In this document: in pieces, positions 3,274-35,408 of the stretch
How positions within the stretch are numbered: position 1 is the stretch's first letter
How the letters are laid out: each line of letters starts with the position of its first letter
Source of the DNA: a virus
Direction: 5' to 3' (one strand)
Virus record (IMG/VR): IMGVR_UViG_3300045988_100376
Length of the DNA stretch: 35,766 nt
Program-made: the position numbers and the translations under genes
Notes under the pieces: generated by a model
The model's database searches: none
What the model saw: only the letters and a program-made list of their open reading frames with translations
What the model was told of the DNA's origin: nothing

Positions 3274-3939
3274 ATGATTGATTTAGAGATAATAAGCACA
3301 GGCTCTAATGGCAACGCAGTCTTTCTTGACGGTCAGGTCTTGATTGACTGCGGAGTGCCGTTCAACAAACTTGTTGAGTGTGAAGTGGTTGACCGAGTTA
3401 AATATGTTTTTTTAACTCATCAACACGGAGACCATTGTAATGTTGCTACTCTAAAGCGACTGCTGTCCGAACACCCTTGTATTCGGATAATTTACCCCAA
3501 TTATCTTTGCAAAAAGCTTTTTTTATTAGGTGATACCTCCTTTCAATACAATTCTTTCATAGTCGCTCAGGATAAATGGTACTCAATCAGCAATATTACT
3601 TTTTCAGCAGTACCACTTCGGCATGATGTTCCTAATATCGGCTGGAAGTTACACTTCAACACTCAACAGGGGATATATAAAGTTATATACGCAACTGATA
3701 CATCGGAAATCGCTCATATAACAGCTAAGAACTACGATTTGTATCTTGTAGAAGCTAACTACTCAAAAACAGAATTACTTAATCGAATAAAAGATAAACG
3801 ATTGAAAGGTCAATATGTGTACGAAGATAGAGTTCTTCGTACACATTTGAGCAAAGAAAAGTGCGATGAATGGTTGTATCAAAATATGGGTAATAACAGT
3901 TTCTTCGTTTATATGCACCAACATGAGGACTTAGTATGA
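3274..3939 (+). CDS. MBL-fold metallo-hydrolase
   Basis: HQHGDH motif after NAVFLDG..LIDCG. I chose the ATG at 3274, just after the recT stop; the track ORF starts at 3175 inside recT. Confidence 0.7.
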   Translation: MIDLEIISTGSNGNAVFLDGQVLIDCGVPFNKLVECEVVDRVKYVFLTHQHGDHCNVATLKRLLSEHPCIRIIYPNYLCKKLFLLGDTSFQYNSFIVAQDKWYSISNITFSAVPLRHDVPNIGWKLHFNTQQGIYKVIYATDTSEIAHITAKNYDLYLVEANYSKTELLNRIKDKRLKGQYVYEDRVLRTHLSKEKCDEWLYQNMGNNSFFVYMHQHEDLV

Positions 3940-4594: not shown

Positions 4595-5482
4595 ATGGCT
4601 GGACAACCAAAGCGAGGGCTTGACTTTGCGGCTTGGGATGTTCACTTGTTCGATGATGATGAGAGATTTGATGTGCTTATTGATGCACAGGGTTGGGACG
4701 GCTTTGGAGTATTTTTTTGGATTTGTACCAAAGCTTATGCAACAAATGGTTACTATTATGAGTGGCGAGAAGAAACCAGTGCTGCCACGATAGCGAAACG
4801 AATGAGCGGTGGAATTAAATCAGATACGGTAAATCAGGTAGTTAAGCTTTGCTTACGAATTGGGCTGTTTGATAACGGGCTGTTTGATAGGGAGAGCATA
4901 CTGACCAACAAAATGATGCAAGAACGATATATGTACGCTATCGAAAAACGCTCCGTGCGAGGTCGCACAATAAATAGATTATATTGGCTTTTGAAAACGG
5001 AAGAAACAAAGGCTTATATAGTTATACCTGAAAATGAGCATAATCTCTCCGAGAATGAACATAATCTCTCCGAGAACGACACAAAGAAAAGTAAAGTAAA
5101 GGAAAGTAAAGTAAATAGAAATAATTATTATGCGATGCCGTCTGCAAATGCAGCCGACACCGCCGGTGAAAATATTTTTATTACATTACCTTTGAACGAT
5201 AAGAGTAATTATCCAGTTTCAAAATCTGATGTTCAGCACTACAAAATTTTGTATCCTGCTGTTGATGTAGAACAACAATTGCGTTCGATGTTGGGGTGGC
5301 TCGAAGCTAATCCGAGCAGGAGAAAAACAAGAACCGGCATTAAAGGTTTCATTACTAAATGGCTTAATAAGGTCCAAGACAGAGGAGGTGTAGGATATGG
5401 ATTCAATCCAAGCGATAATGTCAAGAATAATGTCACCACAGCGAGCGGAGGAAATTATCCAACGGGCGAGAAAGTCTTCTAA
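4595..5482 (+). CDS. Phage replisome organizer / replication initiator (DUF4373 N-terminus, DnaD-like C-terminus)
   Basis: N-terminus GLDFAAWDVHLFDDD...GWDGFGVFFWI. C-terminus WLEANPSRRKTRTGIKGFITKWLNK. Lies upstream of the DnaC-like loader. Confidence 0.7.
   Translation: MAGQPKRGLDFAAWDVHLFDDDERFDVLIDAQGWDGFGVFFWICTKAYATNGYYYEWREETSAATIAKRMSGGIKSDTVNQVVKLCLRIGLFDNGLFDRESILTNKMMQERYMYAIEKRSVRGRTINRLYWLLKTEETKAYIVIPENEHNLSENEHNLSENDTKKSKVKESKVNRNNYYAMPSANAADTAGENIFITLPLNDKSNYPVSKSDVQHYKILYPAVDVEQQLRSMLGWLEANPSRRKTRTGIKGFITKWLNKVQDRGGVGYGFNPSDNVKNNVTTASGGNYPTGEKVF
5030..5116. repeat. Two sets of tandem direct repeats inside the organizer gene; candidate origin iterons
   Basis: The 21-bp unit (g/a)a(g/a)aatga(g/a)cataatctctcc appears twice, plus a partial third copy (5030-5077). 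The ~15-bp unit gaaagtaaagtaaa appears twice (5086-5116). AT-rich DNA follows. Confidence 0.6.
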
Positions 5483-6269
5483 AGAACTCACTCCGAGAGA
5501 AAAAGCCGAACAAGAAGCAAAAGTGTTTAACTCAACACCCGGTAAGCTCATTGGCTATGAGTGCGAGAAATGTATGAACCGAGGCTATATTTACCGTGTA
5601 AAGGCAGGCGAAACGCCTTTCGGGCAGGTTACATATGATGTGGTTGCTTGCAAATGTGATTGTATGAAAATTCGAGATGAACTTCACAGAATGCAGAACA
5701 GCGGTCTTCAAAAACTTCTTAAACGATATACTTTTGAAAGTTACAAGACAACCTCAGATTGGCAGAAATATGTGAAAGATAAAGCATATGAGTACATTGA
5801 CAAATGCTCTGATTGGTTCTTCTTCGGCGGTCAGCCCGGTTGTGGAAAGACACATATATGTACGGCTATTGTCGGAGCATTACTCAAAAAAGGCAAAGCA
5901 CCTAAATATATGCTTTGGCAGGATGATATTACCAAAATCAAGCAGGCATCGAGTAATTTAGAGGTGTATGAAGCTCTCATAAATTCATATAAGCAAGCGG
6001 AAATTCTTTACATTGATGATTTCTTTAAAACTCGCAGGGGCGATTTTGTCTCAACAGCTGATGTCAATGCTACATTTAAGATTATCAATTACAGATACAA
6101 TGAAGGATTGCCGACTGTCATAACATCTGAATTATCACTTGAACAGATTTCGCAGATTGATGAGGCTTTAGGCAGTAGAATTTCAGAAATGGCTAATCCG
6201 AAAATTTTTATTAAAGCCGATAAAAATAAGAATTACCGTTTTACGAGAGGAAATGAAAATGATGTCTGA
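5397..6269 (+). CDS. DnaC/IstB-like AAA+ helicase loader with an N-terminal Cys cluster
   Basis: Walker A GGQPGCGKTH, Walker B ILYIDDF. RBS ggaggtg. Confidence 0.8.
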   Translation: MDSIQAIMSRIMSPQRAEEIIQRARKSSKELTPREKAEQEAKVFNSTPGKLIGYECEKCMNRGYIYRVKAGETPFGQVTYDVVACKCDCMKIRDELHRMQNSGLQKLLKRYTFESYKTTSDWQKYVKDKAYEYIDKCSDWFFFGGQPGCGKTHICTAIVGALLKKGKAPKYMLWQDDITKIKQASSNLEVYEALINSYKQAEILYIDDFFKTRRGDFVSTADVNATFKIINYRYNEGLPTVITSELSLEQISQIDEALGSRISEMANPKIFIKADKNKNYRFTRGNENDV

Positions 6270-6624
6270 AGCACAGGAGCAATGTAAACTCATTAAATGG
6301 GCGGATAAATGTGTGCAAATGAAAATACATCCTGAACTTTCAATGCTGTACGCTGTTCCAAATGGTGGCAGAAGAGATAAAGCCGAAGCCGCACATCTTA
6401 AAAGGCAAGGAGTTAGGGCAGGTGTTCCGGATTTATGCCTTGCTGTGCCAAAAGGTAAATATCACGGCTTATATATTGAGCTTAAAGTCGGCAACAATAA
6501 GACTTCTGAACATCAGGATAAATGGTTGCAGAATCTTTCACGGTGCGGATACGCCGTAAAGGTATGTTATGGCAGTACATCAGCAAAGCAGACAATTGAA
6601 AAATATCTGCAATTGGGTGATTGA
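6253..6624 (+). CDS. VRR-NUC domain nuclease
   Basis: PNGG...GVRAGVPDLCL...YIELKVG...HQ..W pattern. Confidence 0.75.
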   Translation: MKMMSEAQEQCKLIKWADKCVQMKIHPELSMLYAVPNGGRRDKAEAAHLKRQGVRAGVPDLCLAVPKGKYHGLYIELKVGNNKTSEHQDKWLQNLSRCGYAVKVCYGSTSAKQTIEKYLQLGD

Positions 6625-29528: not shown

Positions 29529-30293
29529 ATGCGTAGCTTTATCGGCTGGATTGGTGGCAAAAGTCACCTTAAAAATCAGATTATTTCACTTATTCCCAGT
29601 GACTGTAACCGCTACATAGAGGTGTGTGGCGGTGCAGGCTGGGTCTTATTCGGTAAGGATAAAATCAAAGGTCAAATGGAGATATTTAATGATATTGACG
29701 GCGACCTTATTAACCTTTATAAGCAGATAAAATACAATTGTTCTGCTCTACAAAAGGAGATTGATTGGTTACAGTCTCGAGAGCTGTTTTCGCAATATCG
29801 CTATGAGATTGAGAATCAGGTTGAGCTTACTGACCTGCAAAGAGCAGCACGATATCTTTACTTGATTAAATGTAGCTTTGGTAGCAATAGAAATTCTTTT
29901 GCGACCGCCCCTAAAACAATTTATAATATCGTTTCTGAATTACCAAAGTACAAGGAGCGATTAAAAAGTGTAATCATTGAAAACAGGGATTTTGAAGACC
30001 TTATTAAAACATATGACCGTGATTCTGCTCTGTTTTATGTAGATCCGCCATATGTAGCATCGGAACGCTACTATAACCGCAACTATACTAAGTTTAATAA
30101 AGATGACCATATCCGTTTAAATGCCGTTTTAAAGGGGATTAAAGGGCGTTTTATCCTATCCTATAACGATTGCGATTTCATTCGTGACTTGTATAAAGGT
30201 TACCATATTAAGTGCGTAAGCAGGCAAAACTTGCTCCCAGCAACCGCTGAAAATCGTGCAGAATTTAAAGAAGTTATCATAACCAATTACTGA
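29529..30293 (+). CDS. dam: Dam-family (D12 class) N6-adenine DNA methyltransferase
   Basis: WIGGKSHL, EVCGGAG (FxGxG-like) and DPPY (FYVDPPYVA). Confidence 0.85.
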   Translation: MRSFIGWIGGKSHLKNQIISLIPSDCNRYIEVCGGAGWVLFGKDKIKGQMEIFNDIDGDLINLYKQIKYNCSALQKEIDWLQSRELFSQYRYEIENQVELTDLQRAARYLYLIKCSFGSNRNSFATAPKTIYNIVSELPKYKERLKSVIIENRDFEDLIKTYDRDSALFYVDPPYVASERYYNRNYTKFNKDDHIRLNAVLKGIKGRFILSYNDCDFIRDLYKGYHIKCVSRQNLLPATAENRAEFKEVIITNY

Positions 30294-30294
30294 T

Positions 30295-30366
30295 TTGGTA
30301 ATAATATTACCAATTAAGCAAAATAATAACGCAGTAGTATATTATATTACTCGGGGCGTTATTATG
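30295..30366. promoter_or_regulatory. Palindrome cluster upstream of the XRE gene
   Basis: TTGGTAATA-A-TATTACCAA (30295-30313). ATAATAACGC...GCGTTATTAT (30323-30365), which encloses agtagtatattatattact. Confidence 0.6.
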
Positions 30367-30627
30367 ATTAAAATTCATTTGTCCGATTTGCTTGGCAAAT
30401 ACCGCATAACGCAGGCTGAACTTGCCCGTAAAACCGGCATAAGACCTGCGACAATATGCGATATATATAATGAGATGTGTGACCGTATTAACCTTGAACA
30501 TTTGGACAGGATATGCGAAGTCCTTGGTTGTGATGTTGCTGACATCCTTGAATATCAGCCAAATAAGATTAAAAAGACCGGCACAAATCTCATTTTAGAG
30601 CAAAACGGCAACCGAAAAAAAGAATAA
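30364..30627 (+). CDS. XRE-family (Cro/C1-type) HTH regulator, 87 aa
   Basis: LGKYRITQAELARKTGIRPATICDIYN...LEHLDRICEVLGCDVADILEY. Confidence 0.8.
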   Translation: MIKIHLSDLLGKYRITQAELARKTGIRPATICDIYNEMCDRINLEHLDRICEVLGCDVADILEYQPNKIKKTGTNLILEQNGNRKKE

Positions 30628-31028: not shown

Positions 31029-32066
31029 CTATATTTTGTTGATTGCATTCACCAATTCTTTGGGGTTAATGTGGGTGTAAACCTTTTCGGTCAAGTCCAT
31101 TTTCGACTTGTGACCGACTATTTTTTTGATGATTGTGTGGTTCACATTTGCCGATACAAGCATTGAAATGCAGGTGTGTCTTGTTTCGTGTATGGTGTGG
31201 TCTAAACCTAAATCGTTTTGCAGAGGTGTCCAGTAGTTGCGTTTAAAGTTATCGTATTTCAGCGGCTTGCCATTGGTGTTATTCAGAACATATCCACATT
31301 GAGAATCGCTGATGAATTTCTGCCAAAACGGCAATACTTTGTCTGCTATAGGCACGGTTCGTACACCTGAATCGGTTTTTGAACTTTCAACAAAGAAAGT
31401 CTGTTCGTCAAGGTTTACATTTGAAGTTTTCAGATTGAGAAGTTCAGACACACGCACTCCCGAATAAATCAGCATAAGCACTATTTTTACCGAATCAAGA
31501 TTTGAATATTCCCACAAAAGATTTATTTCGCTTTCCGAAAACTCCCTGCGTGCTCGTTTTGTTTCATCTGACTTGGCATTGATTTTCAATTCTTCTGCAA
31601 GATTGTTATGGAGTATATCGTGAAATATGCAGTATTCGTAGATTTTGTTCAACAGAATTTTAATTCGCCTAACCGATTGATAACCGTTGTTGCAGTTGTC
31701 GAGAACTCGTTGCATATCAATGATTTTTATATCGGACATCTTGCGATTGTATAACATTGAGCATTGTTTGTATGCCGCATTATACTGTCTTTTGGTGTTC
31801 GGATTTGTGTCTTCGGTGATGAACTCCATGTACCAAAGTTCATAAATTTCTGAAAAAGTGCGTCTTGCCGAATCAACATCAAACGGGTTTTGATTGTAAT
31901 CAGCAAGAGCGTTCAGAGCTTTCGGCTTGTTGGGAAAGTAGCCTATAACTCTGCGTTCCTGATTGCGTGTTTCTTTGTTGTATCCTATTGTCACGCAGGC
32001 AACCCACGGATTGCGCCTGTTTCCGCTCAGCTTATAAACAGAGCCGTAGCCGTTAGGCAGTTTCAT
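31029..32066 (-). CDS. int: Tyrosine integrase
   Basis: HETRHTCISML, VGHKS and a C-terminal Y in EKVYTH. ATG at 32066 is 8 nt after aaaggag. Confidence 0.9.
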   Translation of the reverse strand: MKLPNGYGSVYKLSGNRRNPWVACVTIGYNKETRNQERRVIGYFPNKPKALNALADYNQNPFDVDSARRTFSEIYELWYMEFITEDTNPNTKRQYNAAYKQCSMLYNRKMSDIKIIDMQRVLDNCNNGYQSVRRIKILLNKIYEYCIFHDILHNNLAEELKINAKSDETKRARREFSESEINLLWEYSNLDSVKIVLMLIYSGVRVSELLNLKTSNVNLDEQTFFVESSKTDSGVRTVPIADKVLPFWQKFISDSQCGYVLNNTNGKPLKYDNFKRNYWTPLQNDLGLDHTIHETRHTCISMLVSANVNHTIIKKIVGHKSKMDLTEKVYTHINPKELVNAINKI

Positions 32067-32086
32067 TTTATACACTCCTTTTGCTT

Positions 32087-32146
32087 AAAAAAGGGTGCAA
32101 AAATCCCTTGTGTTATTTATCTGCAAAACTTGCAAAACACAAGGGA
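32087..32146 (-). terminator. Intrinsic terminator on the - strand between the NYN gene and int
   Basis: 11-bp perfect inverted repeat tcccttgtgtt/aacacaaggga (32104-32114 and 32136-32146). In - sense it is followed by UUUUUGCACCCUUUUUU. Confidence 0.6.
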
Positions 32147-32158
32147 GTATGGTACAAT
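32130..32158 (+). promoter_or_regulatory. Promoter TTGCAA-17-TACAAT with an extended -10 TG
   Basis: ttgcaa 32130-32135, tggtacaat ending at 32158. Confidence 0.55.
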
Positions 32159-32164
32159 TATATT

Positions 32165-32246
32165 GCTGTTTAAGTACCGTTGCACCCTATGTGTAATGGT
32201 TTCCGCTCTATCCTGTTGGCGCAGGGTAGGGCGGATTTTTTATTTT
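32165..32246 (+). ncRNA. Candidate ~80-nt small RNA, convergent with and overlapping the 3' end of the NYN transcript
   Basis: Bounded by the promoter at 32130-32158 and a 13-bp GC-rich hairpin (32203-32234, two G-U pairs) plus atttttta tttt. No RBS-led ORF inside. Confidence 0.45.
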
Positions 32247-32959
32247 ACTAAATTTTTAGCGTATAGCTTATCTTTCTTTAGTTCTTCTGAATCGGGGCGA
32301 CTTACTTTAGTTTCAAGTCCGTCAATATGTTCAAAGAGACTTGGTTTAATCGTGTGCCACATAGGGTCTAAAATAAAATCAATGCCCTCTCTGCGGGCGT
32401 GCTTAGCAGCAGGAACGAAGTCGCTGTCACCGGCAATTAATATAATACGATCAACTTGCTTTTTGTAAGATAAAGATGCAATATCCAAGCCTATTTTCAT
32501 ATCGACACCTTTCTGTTGTATATCAAGTTTGAAATGACTTTCTTCAAGGTCTGTAATGGCGAGTTTACCATTGCACAATTTCTTTACATATTCAGGCTTA
32601 ATTGTGTATCCAACGGTACTTTCTAAAAGTTCACCTTTTCTAAAAGCTACTTTTCTTTTAGATTTTAGTTCCTCAAAAAACTCCATAGACCATTTATACT
32701 GATCAGTTTTAGATAAATCAATTTGTTCTTTAGTGAGGGGATGATATACTTTCTTAGTTGAAGGAAGACAATCATAGTAGAAAATGCGATAAAGGTATTT
32801 TTCTTCTGAATAACTGTTGCGAGTTTTTTTATTCATGTAATGCCTACTGCAATATTGAACCAATTCTCTTGCCCTATCTTTTGGGTTTTTATCTCCCCAT
32901 AAATAATTTGCTCTTCTTAAATAAAAAGCACCGTCAACAAGGATAGCAATTCTTATCAT
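32240..32959 (-). CDS. NYN (LabA/DUF88-like, PIN-related) domain RNase candidate, 239 aa
   Basis: IAILVDGAF..., QQKGVDMKIGLDIASL and RIILIAGDSDFVPAAKHARREG. ATG at 32959 is 9 nt after aaggag. Confidence 0.7.
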   Translation of the reverse strand: MIRIAILVDGAFYLRRANYLWGDKNPKDRARELVQYCSRHYMNKKTRNSYSEEKYLYRIFYYDCLPSTKKVYHPLTKEQIDLSKTDQYKWSMEFFEELKSKRKVAFRKGELLESTVGYTIKPEYVKKLCNGKLAITDLEESHFKLDIQQKGVDMKIGLDIASLSYKKQVDRIILIAGDSDFVPAAKHARREGIDFILDPMWHTIKPSLFEHIDGLETKVSRPDSEELKKDKLYAKNLVK

Positions 32960-32978
32960 GCGAAAATTCTCCTTTATG

Positions 32979-33035
32979 TAAAAAACTCTTGGGGTCGACA
33001 CATCCCATATGGTGGGAGGTTTACTGCCAAGAGTT
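32979..33035 (-). promoter_or_regulatory. Leader hairpin plus U-tract (attenuator/terminator-like) directly upstream of the NYN RBS
   Basis: - sense: aactcttgg(33035-33027)...inner tccca/tggga stem...ccaagagtt(32992-32984), then uuuu, then acataaaggag. Confidence 0.5.
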
Positions 33036-33060
33036 CACACTAACAATAAAATTAAAATTT

Positions 33061-33079
33061 AATGTAGTAATACTACATT
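33061..33079. promoter_or_regulatory. Perfect 9-1-9 palindrome AATGTAGTA-A-TACTACATT at the predicted NYN transcription start (operator candidate)
   Basis: Read directly from the sequence. Lies just downstream of the - strand -10 element. Confidence 0.55.
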
Positions 33080-33082
33080 TTT

Positions 33083-33111
33083 ATTATATGCAAATTCAAG
33101 ACATTATTCAA
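33083..33111 (-). promoter_or_regulatory. Promoter TTGAAT-17-TATAAT for the NYN gene
   Basis: Reverse complement of attcaa (33106-33111) and of attata (33083-33088), with a 17-nt spacer. Confidence 0.55.
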
Positions 33112-33286
33112 TAGGTATTTTAAATTTGTAATAAATGTTGTTGAAATACAACAAAAAACAAAGTGCTTTATTGTAAAAATAATAGTGATATTTTAATAAA
33201 TGTTACTGTAAAATCCTACGGCTTTGCCAAAAATACAGAGCAAAGTCCAATTTTTAGGACAGTTAAAAAATTCTTGCAAATAGCGC

Positions 33287-33315
33287 TTGAACAATCAGAA
33301 CAAATGTTCTATAAT
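33287..33315 (+). promoter_or_regulatory. Promoter TTGAAC-17-TATAAT with a LexA (Cheo) box AGAACAAATGTTCT in the spacer
   Basis: ttgaac 33287-33292, tataat 33310-33315. GAAC-N4-GTTC at 33298-33309. Confidence 0.65.
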
Positions 33316-33356
33316 GAATGTGTAAAGAAAAATAAAAAGCTTTGGGGTGATTCTAT

Positions 33357-33464
33357 ATGGATTATAAAAAATACATAATCGAATTGATAAATAAAATCGA
33401 AGATGAAAAAACATTGAAAAAAATCTATGCAATAATAAATCGAATTTTTGTGAGAGGTGGGTGA
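33357..33464 (+). CDS. 35-aa ORF MDYKKYIIELINKIEDEKTLKKIYAIINRIFVRGG (candidate SOS-induced antirepressor)
   Basis: ggggtga lies 7 nt upstream of the ATG. Sits downstream of the LexA-box promoter and ends in a terminator stem. Below the ORF-track cutoff. Confidence 0.45.
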   Translation: MDYKKYIIELINKIEDEKTLKKIYAIINRIFVRGG

Positions 33465-33482
33465 CCACCTCTTTTATTTTTC
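33453..33482. terminator. Hairpin agaggtgg/ccacctct with a T-run on the + side, shared by convergent genes
   Basis: Read directly from the sequence. The repressor stop codon lies in the T-run. Confidence 0.7.
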
Positions 33483-33836
33483 TTTCTCAAAGATTTCTTT
33501 CAAGAAGTTTTTGAATATCATCTTATCTTCGTGACTTAATTTCAAATATGTTTCAATAATTTGTTTGTCGAGGTCATCAAGGTTAAATTCTTCTGACAAT
33601 TCATCAAGTATGTAATCCTCATCATCTTCAAACATTTCGCCCTCGCCCTCGGTAAGCCACATAAAGTTTACCCTGTACTCTTTGCAAACCTGTTTGATAA
33701 ATAATTCTTTGGGTTCAACAAGTTCATTTTCAATGTTTTTAATGACACTTCTCGAAACTCCGACACGCTCTCCAAACTCTGTTTGTGAGAGTTTTTTTAT
33801 TTTTCGCAGAGTTTTAAAACGCTCGCTTATGCTCAT
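33474..33836 (-). CDS. CI-like XRE-family repressor without a peptidase S24 domain (120 aa)
   Basis: LRKIKKLSQTEFGERVGVSRSVIKNIENE is the HTH. The C-terminus is acidic and helical. ATG at 33836 is 8 nt after gaggtga. Divergent from the early promoter. Confidence 0.8.
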   Translation of the reverse strand: MSISERFKTLRKIKKLSQTEFGERVGVSRSVIKNIENELVEPKELFIKQVCKEYRVNFMWLTEGEGEMFEDDEDYILDELSEEFNLDDLDKQIIETYLKLSHEDKMIFKNFLKEIFEKEK

Positions 33837-33877
33837 TTTATGTATCACCTCGCTGTAGAATTTTATCTGATGTATTC

Positions 33878-33906
33878 ATTATATACGGTATCCAATGGCT
33901 TGTCAA
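33878..33906 (-). promoter_or_regulatory. Consensus promoter TTGACA-17-TATAAT for the repressor gene
   Basis: Reverse complement of tgtcaa (33901-33906) and of attata (33878-33883). Confidence 0.65.
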
Positions 33907-33950
33907 GCCCAAAAAACAAAATATTTTTATTAAAACAGGGTTGACAAGCC
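33897..33950. promoter_or_regulatory. Two operator copies: GGCTTG-T-CAAGCC (33897-33909) and GGTTGACAAGCC (33939-33950)
   Basis: One copy overlaps each -35 element of the divergent promoters. Confidence 0.6.
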
Positions 33951-33969
33951 GTATTTTGAGGTATATAAT
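33941..33969 (+). promoter_or_regulatory. Consensus early promoter TTGACA-17-TATAAT
   Basis: ttgaca 33941-33946, tataat 33964-33969. Confidence 0.7.
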
Positions 33970-34175: not shown

Positions 34176-34463
34176 ATGTTTTACAATGAACTTGACTATT
34201 TGGACGATGAAGAAGATGAGACAATTTGTTCAAGCAAAATTCCAACCGAGGACGAATTAGAAGATAATCTAAACAAAGTTATTGACGAAAAGCTACTTCA
34301 TTCGTTCTATCTGCTTGGCAAGTATGATGTCAAGATAGAGAGAGCATACCGAGAGGGTTTCAGGAGCGGTCTTGCACTGACTATTTCGGTTACCGCTCTA
34401 TTATTATCACTGGTGGCATTAATATGGAAACTACAGACAATATTAACGCTATTACCGAAATAA
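34176..34463 (+). CDS. 95-aa protein with an acidic N-terminus and a C-terminal TM helix
   Basis: aaggagg lies upstream of the ATG at 34176. TM segment LALTISVTALLLSLVALIW. Confidence 0.5.
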   Translation: MFYNELDYLDDEEDETICSSKIPTEDELEDNLNKVIDEKLLHSFYLLGKYDVKIERAYREGFRSGLALTISVTALLLSLVALIWKLQTILTLLPK

Positions 34464-34710
34464 TTATCGGGACCCAAAAACGGATTTTTTCTTTTCTGCG
34501 GTATAGTAAAAACATTTTCCCTTTTTTAGAAATACAGTAGTATTTAGGATCGGGTGAATAGTCAATAAGATGATAACGCAACAAGAAAGAATATTTTTCT
34601 TTAAATTTATAGTCAACATCTTGTTTTAAAAGTTTATTACCTTTATATAAGAACCTAAGTATTCTCACTTCTGATTTATCAAGAATGAGGTCTTTATGAG
34701 AAGTTGACAT
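34390..34710 (-). CDS. 106-aa protein: possible winged-helix-like N-terminus plus a C-terminal TM helix
   Basis: Own promoter TTGCTT-17-TGtTATGAT (34735-34763). RBS aaggggg. TM segment WVPIIISVIALILSVVSIL. Confidence 0.55.
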   Translation of the reverse strand: MSTSHKDLILDKSEVRILRFLYKGNKLLKQDVDYKFKEKYSFLLRYHLIDYSPDPKYYCISKKGKMFLLYRRKEKIRFWVPIIISVIALILSVVSILMPPVIIIER

Positions 34711-34734
34711 AGTGTGCACCCCCTTTCATAGTTA

Positions 34735-34763
34735 ATCATAACATTTAAGGTCGTGTAAAGCAA
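34735..34763 (-). promoter_or_regulatory. Promoter TTGCTT-17-TATGAT with an extended -10 TG
   Basis: Reverse complement of aagcaa (34758-34763) and of atcata (34735-34740). Confidence 0.5.
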
Positions 34764-34818
34764 TAAAATATCGAAAAGCAGGTGAGAAAATGGGATTTTT
34801 TAATAATTTATTCAACAT

Positions 34819-34854
34819 AAAAAAAGCACCAACAGTCACCAAGACTGTCAGTGC
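34819..34854 (-). terminator. Intrinsic terminator for the 186-aa gene
   Basis: - sense: gcac-uga-cagtc-uuggu-gactg-uug-gtgc, then UUUUUUU. The stop codon lies inside the stem. Confidence 0.55.
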
Positions 34855-35408
34855 ACCTTATGTTCCGCCTTATCCTTTAGAAAAAGATTTTTATACTTTT
34901 GATAAGGTAGAGTGGAGCGGAGCGTTACCACCTCATTCAATGACACTTTCTTTTGTACTTCCTTATTCCGATTGGTGCGAATTTGAAAAGTCAGACCTTT
35001 ATCGAGATTTGGAGAATTATCTTCAGGAATTACAAAAACGAGGTAACCCGAATGAGAATGTAGGCATTCAAGATTGATAGGCAGATGTTCATTGTATGTC
35101 GGAACATACTCATCAACACCTTTTGCCTTGTGATGATAAGAATTAACTTCGTGGGTGTTGTAATCTTCGGTGTACTCTATGCCGTTCAGAACTAATTGAA
35201 TGTCGGTAACAGAAATAGGCAGTTGCGATTTATTGTTAAGTTTATAATGAATGAAAAGTCTTTTCTTTCCCTGCACGCCTAATTTGTATGCGTATTCAAG
35301 CATTGTGATTTCCAAATTCACTTTGTGCGAAACAAAATAGTTAATCAGGTTTATTAAAGATATTAAAAAGCCTGCAATGCCTAAAATACCACTAATTATT
35401 ACCCACAT
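34848..35408 (-). CDS. 186-aa membrane-anchored protein (N-terminal TM, beta-rich ectodomain)
   Basis: Promoter, RBS aaggag, TM segment MWVIISGILGIAGFLISLINLINYF, terminator. Confidence 0.65.
   Translation of the reverse strand: MWVIISGILGIAGFLISLINLINYFVSHKVNLEITMLEYAYKLGVQGKKRLFIHYKLNNKSQLPISVTDIQLVLNGIEYTEDYNTHEVNSYHHKAKGVDEYVPTYNEHLPINLECLHSHSGYLVFVIPEDNSPNLDKGLTFQIRTNRNKEVQKKVSLNEVVTLRSTLPYQKYKNLFLKDKAEHKVH

Follow-up and report, generated by a model that had tools for sequence, protein, structure and literature searches.

In type III toxin-antitoxin (TA) systems, an RNA antitoxin composed of tandem repeats is processed by a toxic ribonuclease (RNase) and neutralises it, and these systems also act as abortive infection (Abi) defences. 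In phage lambda, the rexAB genes are transcribed together with the repressor gene cI in the lysogen, and rexAB, like BstA, is located just downstream of the repressor. In C. difficile, the prophage-encoded toxin AbiF is neutralised by RCd22, a structured RNA located upstream (PMC12373285). The subject here is a gene for a NYN-domain protein, together with the leader RNA that precedes it, in a viral DNA sequence of 35,766 nucleotides (IMG/VR virus record IMGVR_UViG_3300045988_100376); the whole of this stretch is referred to as the window. The NYN gene is best read as one half of a mobile two-part cassette, of which the leader is the other half, and the cassette as optional cargo found next to the integrase gene or just after the repressor gene. 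We give an even chance to the proposal that leader and gene form an RNase module expressed in the lysogen under leader-mediated restraint, serving anti-phage defence (abortive infection or exclusion) or acting as a toxin.

The CRISPR-associated NYN protein of B. fragilis is a Mn2+-dependent RNase that cleaves single-stranded RNA without sequence specificity. Cleavage is abolished by the substitution D13A, and an active-site Asp triad has been given for this protein, VPA0982 and MARF1 (PMC11346440). A further described element of relevance is Teg147, a 60-nt S. aureus transcript that is counted among the "bona fide sRNAs" (small RNAs) and is located on a genomic island. The corresponding Rfam family, TEG147, was built in a student course, and a 2026 JAR3D study identified its internal loop as a strong 7x6 sarcin-ricin (G-bulge) candidate. 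No function is given for Teg147 in the Rfam entry or in the literature, where it is presented as an S. aureus sRNA, and no paper linking it to NYN proteins was found.

The NYN protein and its leader RNA

A preliminary description of the window, made from the sequence, had placed a NYN-type RNase gene between the genes for an integrase and a repressor, and the coordinates of the three genes agree with this (Table 1). The longest open reading frame (ORF) opens at a GTG at 33001; the ATG at 32959 was taken as the real start, because AAGGAG lies 8 nt upstream of it and 38 homologues start at the same residue. The Pfam search that had been suggested returned NYN (PF01936) at 41.8 bits, above the curated cutoff of 24.2 (E=1.9e-10), with an alignment restricted to residues 138-194. 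The match is partial because ~75 residues are inserted into the NYN domain. PF01936 was present in all 120 homologues among the matches listed. The protein also matched PHROG 5783 (function unknown) over its full length (E=9e-89), and in NCBIfam only a sub-threshold match to TIGR00288 (NYN) was obtained. We read the domain as genuine yet divergent, with the insertion at residues 65-140.

The acidic motifs pointed out in the preliminary description were all found, and D9 (ILVDG), D153 (KGVD) and D178/D180 (GDSDF) are invariant in an alignment of 38 homologues. The sequence of VPA0982 (PDB 2QIP) aligned weakly with the protein (E=0.62), with D153 and GDSDF falling on equivalent motifs. As judged from these alignments, the invariant residues correspond to the catalytic Asp triad of the characterised NYN RNases, and the protein is a putative RNase. 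An AlphaFold2 (AF2) model (mean pLDDT 88.3) has an alpha/beta fold of alternating strands and helices, and its top three matches among the predicted viral structures of BFVD were NYN/LabA-like, each with a probability of 1.0 and TM-scores of ~0.37-0.52. Support for the NYN assignment from the fold is moderate. The gene was also correctly described as more AT-rich than the structural genes: the ORF has a fractional G+C content of 0.340, compared with 0.422 in the structural region and 0.398 in the window as a whole.

A one-genome-per-species scan found 80 loci encoding homologues with 53-65% identity, distributed over Clostridia, Negativicutes, Actinobacteria, Spirochaetes, Bacteroidota and one deltaproteobacterium. 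Among 1.84 billion representative proteins, the family comprises 189 clusters at 50% identity (E<=1e-30). When the protein was used as the query in a tblastn search of phage genomes, 65 records were retrieved, including Dorea phage DO134P1, Streptococcus phages Javan84 and Javan85, Lactococcus phage Bacchus, Burkholderia phage phiE202, Moraxella phage Mcat4, Proteus phage Brookers, E. coli phages ev099 and 2B8, and 48 Stx2a-converting phages. No phage genome near-identical over the 3.3-kb region was found in INPHARED. Homologues also occur outside recognisable prophages.

The promoter that had been predicted for the NYN gene is present (Table 1), and near-consensus TTGACA/TATAAT-like promoters were found in most homologous loci, 40-60 nt upstream of an RNA motif. 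In an alignment of the window with the upstream regions of two close metagenomic relatives (L092 and L088), the -10 box, a palindrome, a long hairpin and a T-run are nearly invariant. The leader was found to be structured when its fold was compared with those of shuffled sequences (z=-3.5), in line with the preliminary description, which had treated it as a local feature of this gene; it is instead a widely conserved RNA motif related to TEG147. The "operator plus leader" of that description probably form one conserved RNA, consisting of a 5' hairpin (P1), a long hairpin (P2) and a terminal U-tract.

P1 (AATGTAGTATTACTACATT) includes a perfect 15-nt palindrome, TGTAGTAATACTACA (33063-33077). 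In other loci, a hairpin of differing sequence follows directly after the -10 box, and a stem of at least 6 bp was found at the P1 position in 89% of loci and 60% of controls, a simple statistic that separates the two weakly. The palindrome was read as a 5' RNA hairpin because the hairpins at this position in other loci are unrelated in sequence. It was not read as an operator because no related site was found in the cI/cro control region of the window and no DNA-binding protein was found to travel with the cassette. Thus, the palindrome noted in the preliminary description exists, but the repressor operator role given to it is disfavoured and a 5' hairpin of the leader RNA is more likely, with a role at the DNA level also possible. 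A second palindrome, TGTTGAAATACAACA (33139-33153), precedes the -35 box of the NYN promoter by ~30 nt and has no counterpart elsewhere in the window.

From its sequence and position, P2 appears to be an intrinsic-terminator-like element in the 5' leader. Using nhmmer, it was found directly upstream of the NYN gene in ~60 of the 80 genome loci, with visible compensatory changes. In an alignment of 34 sequences, all 17 of the 17 proposed pairs change on both sides, and 90% of cells pair, compared with 33-51% when the partners are slid; none of 500 shuffles reached the observed value. RNAalifold, which was given no structure, recovered the outer 8 and inner 4 pairs. A covariance model of the long hairpin, R1, was built from this alignment. 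It scored 78.1 bits on the window (32966-33044), and in ~78 of 87 loci chosen by their protein it matched immediately before the NYN ORF, with positive loci in Clostridia, Negativicutes, Spirochaetes and Bacteroidota, and in Javan85, the Dorea phage, Mcat4 and phiE202.

When 78 distinct copies were aligned with R1, 17 of 17 pairs covaried and 89.8% of cells were paired, compared with 34-54% for slid partners, in an alignment that leans towards the model to which it was fitted. Every one of these copies has at least 4 T within the 8 nt that follow the stem, and in most loci a Shine-Dalgarno sequence similar to AAGGAG comes after the U-tract. The consensus of the 5' internal loop is mostly N-R-G-U-A, that of the 3' internal loop is G-A-N-N and that of the apical loop is A-N-N-A-U-A-N. 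A diverged leader occupies the same place in the NYN loci of Actinobacteria. A CsrA-type GGA site was considered and dropped, as the GGA sits in a covarying stem and is missing from many copies. Mimicry of the loop E arm of 5S rRNA was likewise dropped, since no 5S match was returned by a permissive Rfam search.

The linkage between the RNA and the gene also holds when the RNA is taken as the starting point. A pattern search of viral contigs returned 60 matches; a NYN gene was found 38-96 nt downstream in 48, and 2 were at contig ends. Orphan leaders occur. The reverse, a NYN gene of the main clade that has no leader RNA, was not seen among these loci.

At the gathering thresholds of Rfam, no matches were obtained for the whole window. 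In a permissive search of the region 32000-33500, the only relevant match was a weak one to TEG147 (RF03535) on P2, which covered the full model with 30.4 bits (E=0.0014), below the gathering cutoff of 56.1. The S. aureus TEG147 copy scores 58 bits with R1, and therefore TEG147 and the leader can be regarded as one RNA family in a broad sense. A search of metagenome contigs with the TEG147 consensus found 22 loci; a NYN homologue was undetectable in 20 of these, and an intact NYN gene was located 43 nt downstream in the other two (L096 and L113). In one S. aureus-type contig that was read (L097, 3466-3600), the TEG147 hairpin and U-tract are followed by IDKVAILIYGVFIN*, and no NYN gene is present. 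This short reading frame is a 14-codon decayed N-terminus of NYN (consensus xKxAILVDGGFY). From this remnant and the 20 loci that have no NYN gene, Teg147 in most of these S. aureus-type loci appears to be the orphan leader of a lost NYN gene. This provides a genomic explanation for an S. aureus sRNA that has no known function. The contig L097 also carries an SSL-like gene at 5413-6159.

Cargo of the integrase-repressor slot

To sample the site in which the cassette lies, 80 viral contigs encoding an integrase at least 97% identical to that of the window were collected. The NYN gene is present in 8 of the 80, all 8 with the leader, and neither is present in the other 72. In the 1.8 kb upstream of the integrase gene (contigs L175-L254), at least a dozen unrelated cargo types were found. 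These include matches to SoFic (Fic/DOC) in 21 contigs, SLATT/DUF4231 with a ThsB-like TIR protein in 7, PDC-S42 in 6, PDC-S35 with a CAP12/Pycsar-type TIR protein in 2, and a PDC-S02-like protein. Within one pair of flanks, NYN therefore alternates with anti-phage genes, some known and some candidates, as cargo of a prophage defence hotspot. The same argument from location has reportedly been used to find defence systems in the P2 and P4 hotspots. In the slot of some contigs, cargo with no match of any kind was seen, for example a 286-amino acid (aa) protein in L180 and a 302-aa protein with a TM2-domain protein in L181; such proteins are further candidates for defence genes.

The alternation of cargo is the strongest support, albeit indirect, for an interpretation of NYN as a defence gene or toxin. 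The preliminary description had stated that the gene does not belong to a named defence or TA family, and this was borne out, as no full-length match to a system in PADLOC-DB v2.0.0 was found; the protein gave partial and weak matches to the CRISPR-associated NYN model (7e-7, over 45 residues) and to HEC-09 (8e-4). No paper treating this NYN family as a defence or toxin gene was found, nor any on NYN and superinfection exclusion, and among papers on NYN and anti-phage activity only those on HEC-09 and CRISPR-associated NYN proteins were relevant.

The contents of the slot also bear on whether the gene might act in counter-defence, degrading host immune RNAs or signalling nucleotides, or be a neutral passenger, with the RNA no more than an insulator made of a promoter and a terminator. 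NYN nucleases take part in CRISPR RNA processing, anti-defence genes are also carried in phage accessory regions, and the NYN defence candidate HEC-09 showed no defence. However, the slot is one from which expression in the lysogen is expected, and its other occupants are cargo of the SoFic, TIR and Abi types rather than early lytic genes. In a simple insulator, there would be no need for a sarcin-ricin-like loop or for an apical-loop sequence that is conserved across phyla. Counter-defence or passenger status is consequently considered very improbable.

A survey of homologue neighbourhoods, which the preliminary description had proposed, found the family enriched next to integrase and repressor genes. 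Using Pfam, the first downstream neighbours (n=71) included 15 tyrosine integrases and 9 large serine recombinases, and XRE regulators made up at least 11 of the first upstream neighbours (n=68), a Peptidase_S24 domain being present in 8. With iterated local profiles, an integrase gene within 2.5 kb downstream on the same strand was found in 41 of 74 loci, an XRE gene upstream in 31 and both in 28. The gene order in Javan85 is XRE regulator, NYN, integrase. Of the two close metagenomic relatives, one has the order cI, NYN, int and the other cI, HicAB, NYN, int.

In ev099 and Brookers, the NYN homologue lies directly after a LexA-type repressor gene (cI) and before an N-like gene, a slot that we take to be the lambda rexAB position. 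In the Stx2a phage, there is an extra 113-aa ORF between cI and NYN. The enterobacterial homologues (L004, 5001-5858; L006, 4001-4825; L007, 5001-5858) are 274-285 aa in length and 37-38% identical, with a longer C-terminus. Of 5426 complete E. coli genomes, 275 contain at least a part of this leaderless form and 74 contain its full length, for example O121:H19 strains; it is annotated merely as "NYN domain-containing protein". Elsewhere, NYN adjoins a TA pair and the integrase gene in the P2-like phiE202, and the Mcat4 copy is inserted singly behind the terminase gene. The proposal that NYN serves defence or is a toxin, made in the preliminary description, is partly supported, by its context alone: int/repressor adjacency, the rexAB position and the alternating defence cargo.

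These positions are relevant to another possibility, that NYN is a regulatory RNase of the phage's own life cycle, acting on int, cI or early transcripts, and that the leader is an autoregulatory target, for which Regnase-1 and the leaders of RNase III and RNase E are analogues. Regular adjacency to int and cI on the same strand would suit such a role. So would the high conservation of the protein and the RNA loops, which suggests specific RNA-protein recognition, and the apparent tolerance of NYN when it is co-transcribed with cI in lambdoid phages. However, NYN is present in only 8 of the 80 siblings that share the integrase; the remaining phages do without it and have defence-type genes in the slot. 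The quite different genome positions in phiE202 and Mcat4, and the occurrence of NYN outside recognisable prophages, also argue against a life-cycle role, which is thus quite unlikely. A stand-alone putative RNase, carried as accessory cargo in the integrase-repressor slot, is the description of the window gene that is supported by its sequence context.

Table 1. Positions of the cassette and of the elements around it in the window
Feature	Coordinates	Strand	Basis
NYN-domain protein gene, 239 aa, putative metal-dependent endoribonuclease	32240..32959	-	ORF, Pfam, PHROG, invariant Asp, AF2
Shine-Dalgarno AAGGAG of NYN gene	32969..32974	-	direct sequence reading
P2, long hairpin, with sarcin-ricin-like internal loop (AGUA / GA), apical loop ANNAUAN and U-tract 32980-32985	32980..33036	-	
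P1, short 5' hairpin of leader RNA	33061..33079	-	first hairpin in fold
Cassette promoter TTGAAT-17-TATAAT	33083..33111	-	consensus scan, 10/12 matches
Tyrosine integrase gene, right-hand anchor of hotspot	31029..32075	-	Pfam Phage_integrase, E=7e-21
XRE/cI-like repressor gene, left-hand side of slot	33474..33848	-	Pfam HTH_3, E=1.2e-9; PHROG transcriptional repressor families
Convergent small-RNA unit, promoter TTGCAA-17-TGgTACAAT (extended -10), ~80-nt transcript, two hairpins, terminator	32130..32241	+	z=-6.9
15-bp GC-rich hairpin abutting NYN stop codon, T-run on + strand only	32202..32235	.	terminator scan, fold

At the downstream end of the NYN gene, the preliminary description had identified a dedicated antisense unit. 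A small-RNA unit does exist there, divergent from int and convergent on the cargo gene, and overlaps only the last bases of the 3' end of NYN. Its terminator is strong, and its fold greatly surpasses those of shuffled sequences (z=-6.9). However, it is kept beside the same integrase gene in L117 and also in L128, which has PDC-S42 as its cargo, and a NYN-specific antisense regulator was therefore rejected. An equivalent consensus promoter and hairpin were found in L092. By this pattern of retention, the unit belongs with the integrase rather than with NYN. Pairing of the small RNA with the leader was dropped, as no convincing complementarity was found by inspection.

The GC-rich hairpin that abuts the NYN stop codon is kept with compensatory changes in L092, L117 and L128. 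When the window (32202-32235) is compared with L092 (6725-6765), the arms are the same and the 6-nt loop is reverse-complemented (CGCCAA vs TTGGCG, read in the NYN sense), and it looks as if this terminator hairpin has been inverted between the two. Just before int (32104-32146, minus strand), there is an inverted repeat of 11 bp, TCCCTTGTGTT ... AACACAAGGGA, with TTTTTG after it when read in the int sense. It forms a second terminator-like hairpin between the cargo and int that overlaps the -35 box of the small-RNA promoter. The stretch AAAAAAGGGTGCAAAAATCCCTTGT beside this repeat is kept in L117 and L128.

Four further regions of the window were recorded. Between cI and the NYN promoter (33287-33473, plus strand), there is a small, self-contained unit convergent on cI, made up of the promoter TTGAAC-17-TATAAT, a Shine-Dalgarno sequence, a 35-aa ORF (MDYKKYIIELINKIEDEKTLKKIYAIINRIFVRGG) and a terminator in the form of a perfect hairpin. 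Only some siblings have this unit (L127, L131, L154, L164 and L166), and no match was found in PHROG. Two divergent promoters of perfect consensus (TTGACA-17-TATAAT) lie within a 33-nt imperfect inverted repeat at 33878-33969, which is presumably a cI/cro-type genetic switch. On the far side of the integrase gene, near the presumed attP side, a gene for a D12-class N6-adenine DNA methyltransferase is followed by one for an HTH_26 Cro/C1-type regulator (29529-30627, plus strand). In the early region (34390-35408, minus strand), two ORFs of 109 aa and 186 aa with hydrophobic segments, the latter matching phrog_17486 (function unknown), may be further accessory genes.

Proposed function and alternatives

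In the proposed mechanism, the slots that hold the cassette would be transcribed in the lysogen, and a strong sigma-70-type promoter would yield mostly a short and stable structured RNA of ~100 nt, comparable to the Teg147 transcript observed in S. aureus. This leader would restrain the nuclease to a low or silent level, firstly by stopping most transcripts before the ORF, such that the read-through transcripts alone would encode the NYN nuclease. Binding of the leader to the nuclease, or its cleavage by the nuclease, may contribute as well, as for the RNA antitoxins of type III systems. The conserved loops of the leader would be recognised, as a substrate or an inhibitor, by a partner that travels with the cassette, the simplest candidate being NYN. 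Upon superinfection, NYN would cut RNA and thereby block either the invader or the cell.

Several observations weigh against this proposal. HEC-09, which is distantly related and the sole NYN candidate for defence to have been assayed to date, protected against none of the phages tried. The fold comparison that had been suggested for the AF2 model gave NYN/LabA-like proteins in BFVD as described above, but the top 50 matches in the PDB contained no NYN structures and were generic Rossmann-like folds with TM-scores of 0.2-0.36; a search of PDB sequences with the NYN family profile also found nothing. With 55-65% identity across phyla and only 189 clusters, the protein is unusually conserved for a defence gene. 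In the enterobacterial lambdoid homologues, no leader was found, even with the search filters off, and NYN seems to share a transcript with cI, from which it follows that the protein is not necessarily acutely toxic. In the leader itself, Tandem Repeats Finder detected no array, only a single unit.

A further point against the proposal is that the leader is also found in front of other genes. The remaining 10 matches of the RNA pattern search are true copies of the motif, with scores of 39-84 bits, and have other genes downstream. Those identified were a gene with a SocA/Panacea antitoxin domain plus a 311-aa ORF, Abi_2/AbiD, HicA-HicB and PDC-S42, and other leaders of this set precede ORFs of unknown function or only the integrase gene. 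In some cases, the junction falls right after the Shine-Dalgarno sequence of NYN and the new gene starts 80-140 nt further on, which looks like a replacement of cargo that left the leader behind; in others, an ORF follows directly after the U-tract. In L015, a second leader copy (3522-3592) precedes HicB-like genes, and in L140 two copies (3833-3912 and 6204-6282) precede ORFs of 288 aa and 125 aa that are of unknown function. As L140 and L015 each carry two copies before different genes, these cases suggest that the leader can serve as a reusable 5' module. The pairing of leader and NYN is strong, not exclusive, with alternative cargo of TA or Abi type. The presence of the leader before unrelated genes argues against an RNA antitoxin that is strictly specific for NYN, and is compatible with a generic attenuator or a remnant of cargo replacement.

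The version in which the leader is a trans-acting partner of NYN, as an antitoxin, decoy or sensor RNA with its sarcin-ricin-like and ANNAUAN loops recognised by the nuclease, is put forward only tentatively. If true, the cassette would define a new class of RNA-protein TA or abortive infection system that spans phyla and has a NYN effector, and Teg147 would be a surviving orphan antitoxin.

The same data bear on the possibility that the cassette is a type III-like addiction module with the main role of stabilising prophages or islands, the abundant terminated leader RNA neutralising a NYN toxin that is more stable and would be freed on loss of the module. The layout of promoter, structured RNA, terminator and RNase gene is as expected for such a module, and AbiF with RCd22 provides a precedent. 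HicAB modules and a Panacea pair occur in the same cassette position or neighbourhood. Orphan RNAs occur beside a decayed toxin gene and no main-clade NYN gene was seen without the RNA, but this asymmetry is equally explained if the leader holds the sole promoter. The leader also has no tandem repeats and stands before unrelated genes, and the enterobacterial homologues have no such RNA. As known type III systems also act as Abi defences, addiction overlaps with the explanation favoured here, and as a separate main role it is judged unlikely.

If the cassette protects lysogens, a NYN-fold RNase effector and a new kind of RNA partner would be added to the bacterial defence repertoire. Regnase-1, KHNYN and N4BP1, which are relatives with the NYN fold, have roles in the antiviral immunity of animals. 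The family described here is common in prophages of gut Clostridia and is also found in streptococcal, lactococcal, Moraxella and Burkholderia phages, and its leaderless form takes the place of rexAB in Stx2a-converting and other E. coli prophages. At ~1 kb, the RNA-gene pair is small and lends itself to testing, and cultured hosts exist for at least Dorea phage DO134P1 and the Javan streptococcal prophages.

Comparison with known systems

Type III TA and Abi systems (ToxIN, AbiQ-antiQ, CptIN and TenpIN) have the same order of promoter, structured non-coding RNA, intrinsic terminator and endoribonuclease gene, are likewise carried on mobile elements and share the expected role in phage defence. 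At the level of sequence, the window cassette has a non-coding RNA upstream of the putative toxin gene and a predicted intrinsic terminator between the two. However, the type III RNA is a tandem repeat array, whereas the window leader is a single two-hairpin unit in which Tandem Repeats Finder found no tandem direct repeats, and the type III nuclease has a ToxN-type fold whereas the window nuclease is NYN/PIN-like. Unlike a type III antitoxin, the leader also stands before other genes, and binding and processing of the RNA by the protein are here only proposed.

Likewise, AbiF of C. difficile is a prophage-borne toxic protein that targets RNA and is encoded behind a conserved structured RNA, and one copy of the leader described here precedes a gene of the Abi_2/AbiD type. 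However, AbiF is an Abi_2/HEPN-like protein rather than a NYN protein, and RCd22 is another RNA motif. Because there are no tandem repeats and both the fold and the RNA differ, the cassette, although it shares a type III TA-like architecture, is not a member of the type III TA or AbiF-RCd22 families.

The leader and TEG147 have in common an outer stem, an AGUA/GAA internal loop, a CCCA...GGG inner stem and a U-tract. In S. aureus, TEG147 is mostly an orphan, whereas the window leader precedes an intact NYN gene and its relatives occur across phyla. The nuclease belongs to the same Pfam family as the characterised NYN nucleases (B. fragilis, VPA0982, MARF1 and HEC-09) and has the same conserved Asp triad, but its family is distant in sequence, has the insertion of ~75 residues and is stand-alone cargo with its own leader; HEC-09 also differs in having an extra N-terminal domain. 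The likeness to lambda rexAB and BstA is one of position only, with no relation in sequence or fold: the NYN gene comes directly behind cI in lambdoid phages, and in Firmicute phages it is flanked by the integrase and repressor genes. The annotation of a NYN domain as such is routine. As far as can be told, what is new in comparison with these systems is that a NYN family serves as hotspot cargo in different phyla, that it is almost obligately paired with a leader RNA of the sarcin-ricin type, and that S. aureus Teg147 can be explained as an orphan from the NYN cassette.

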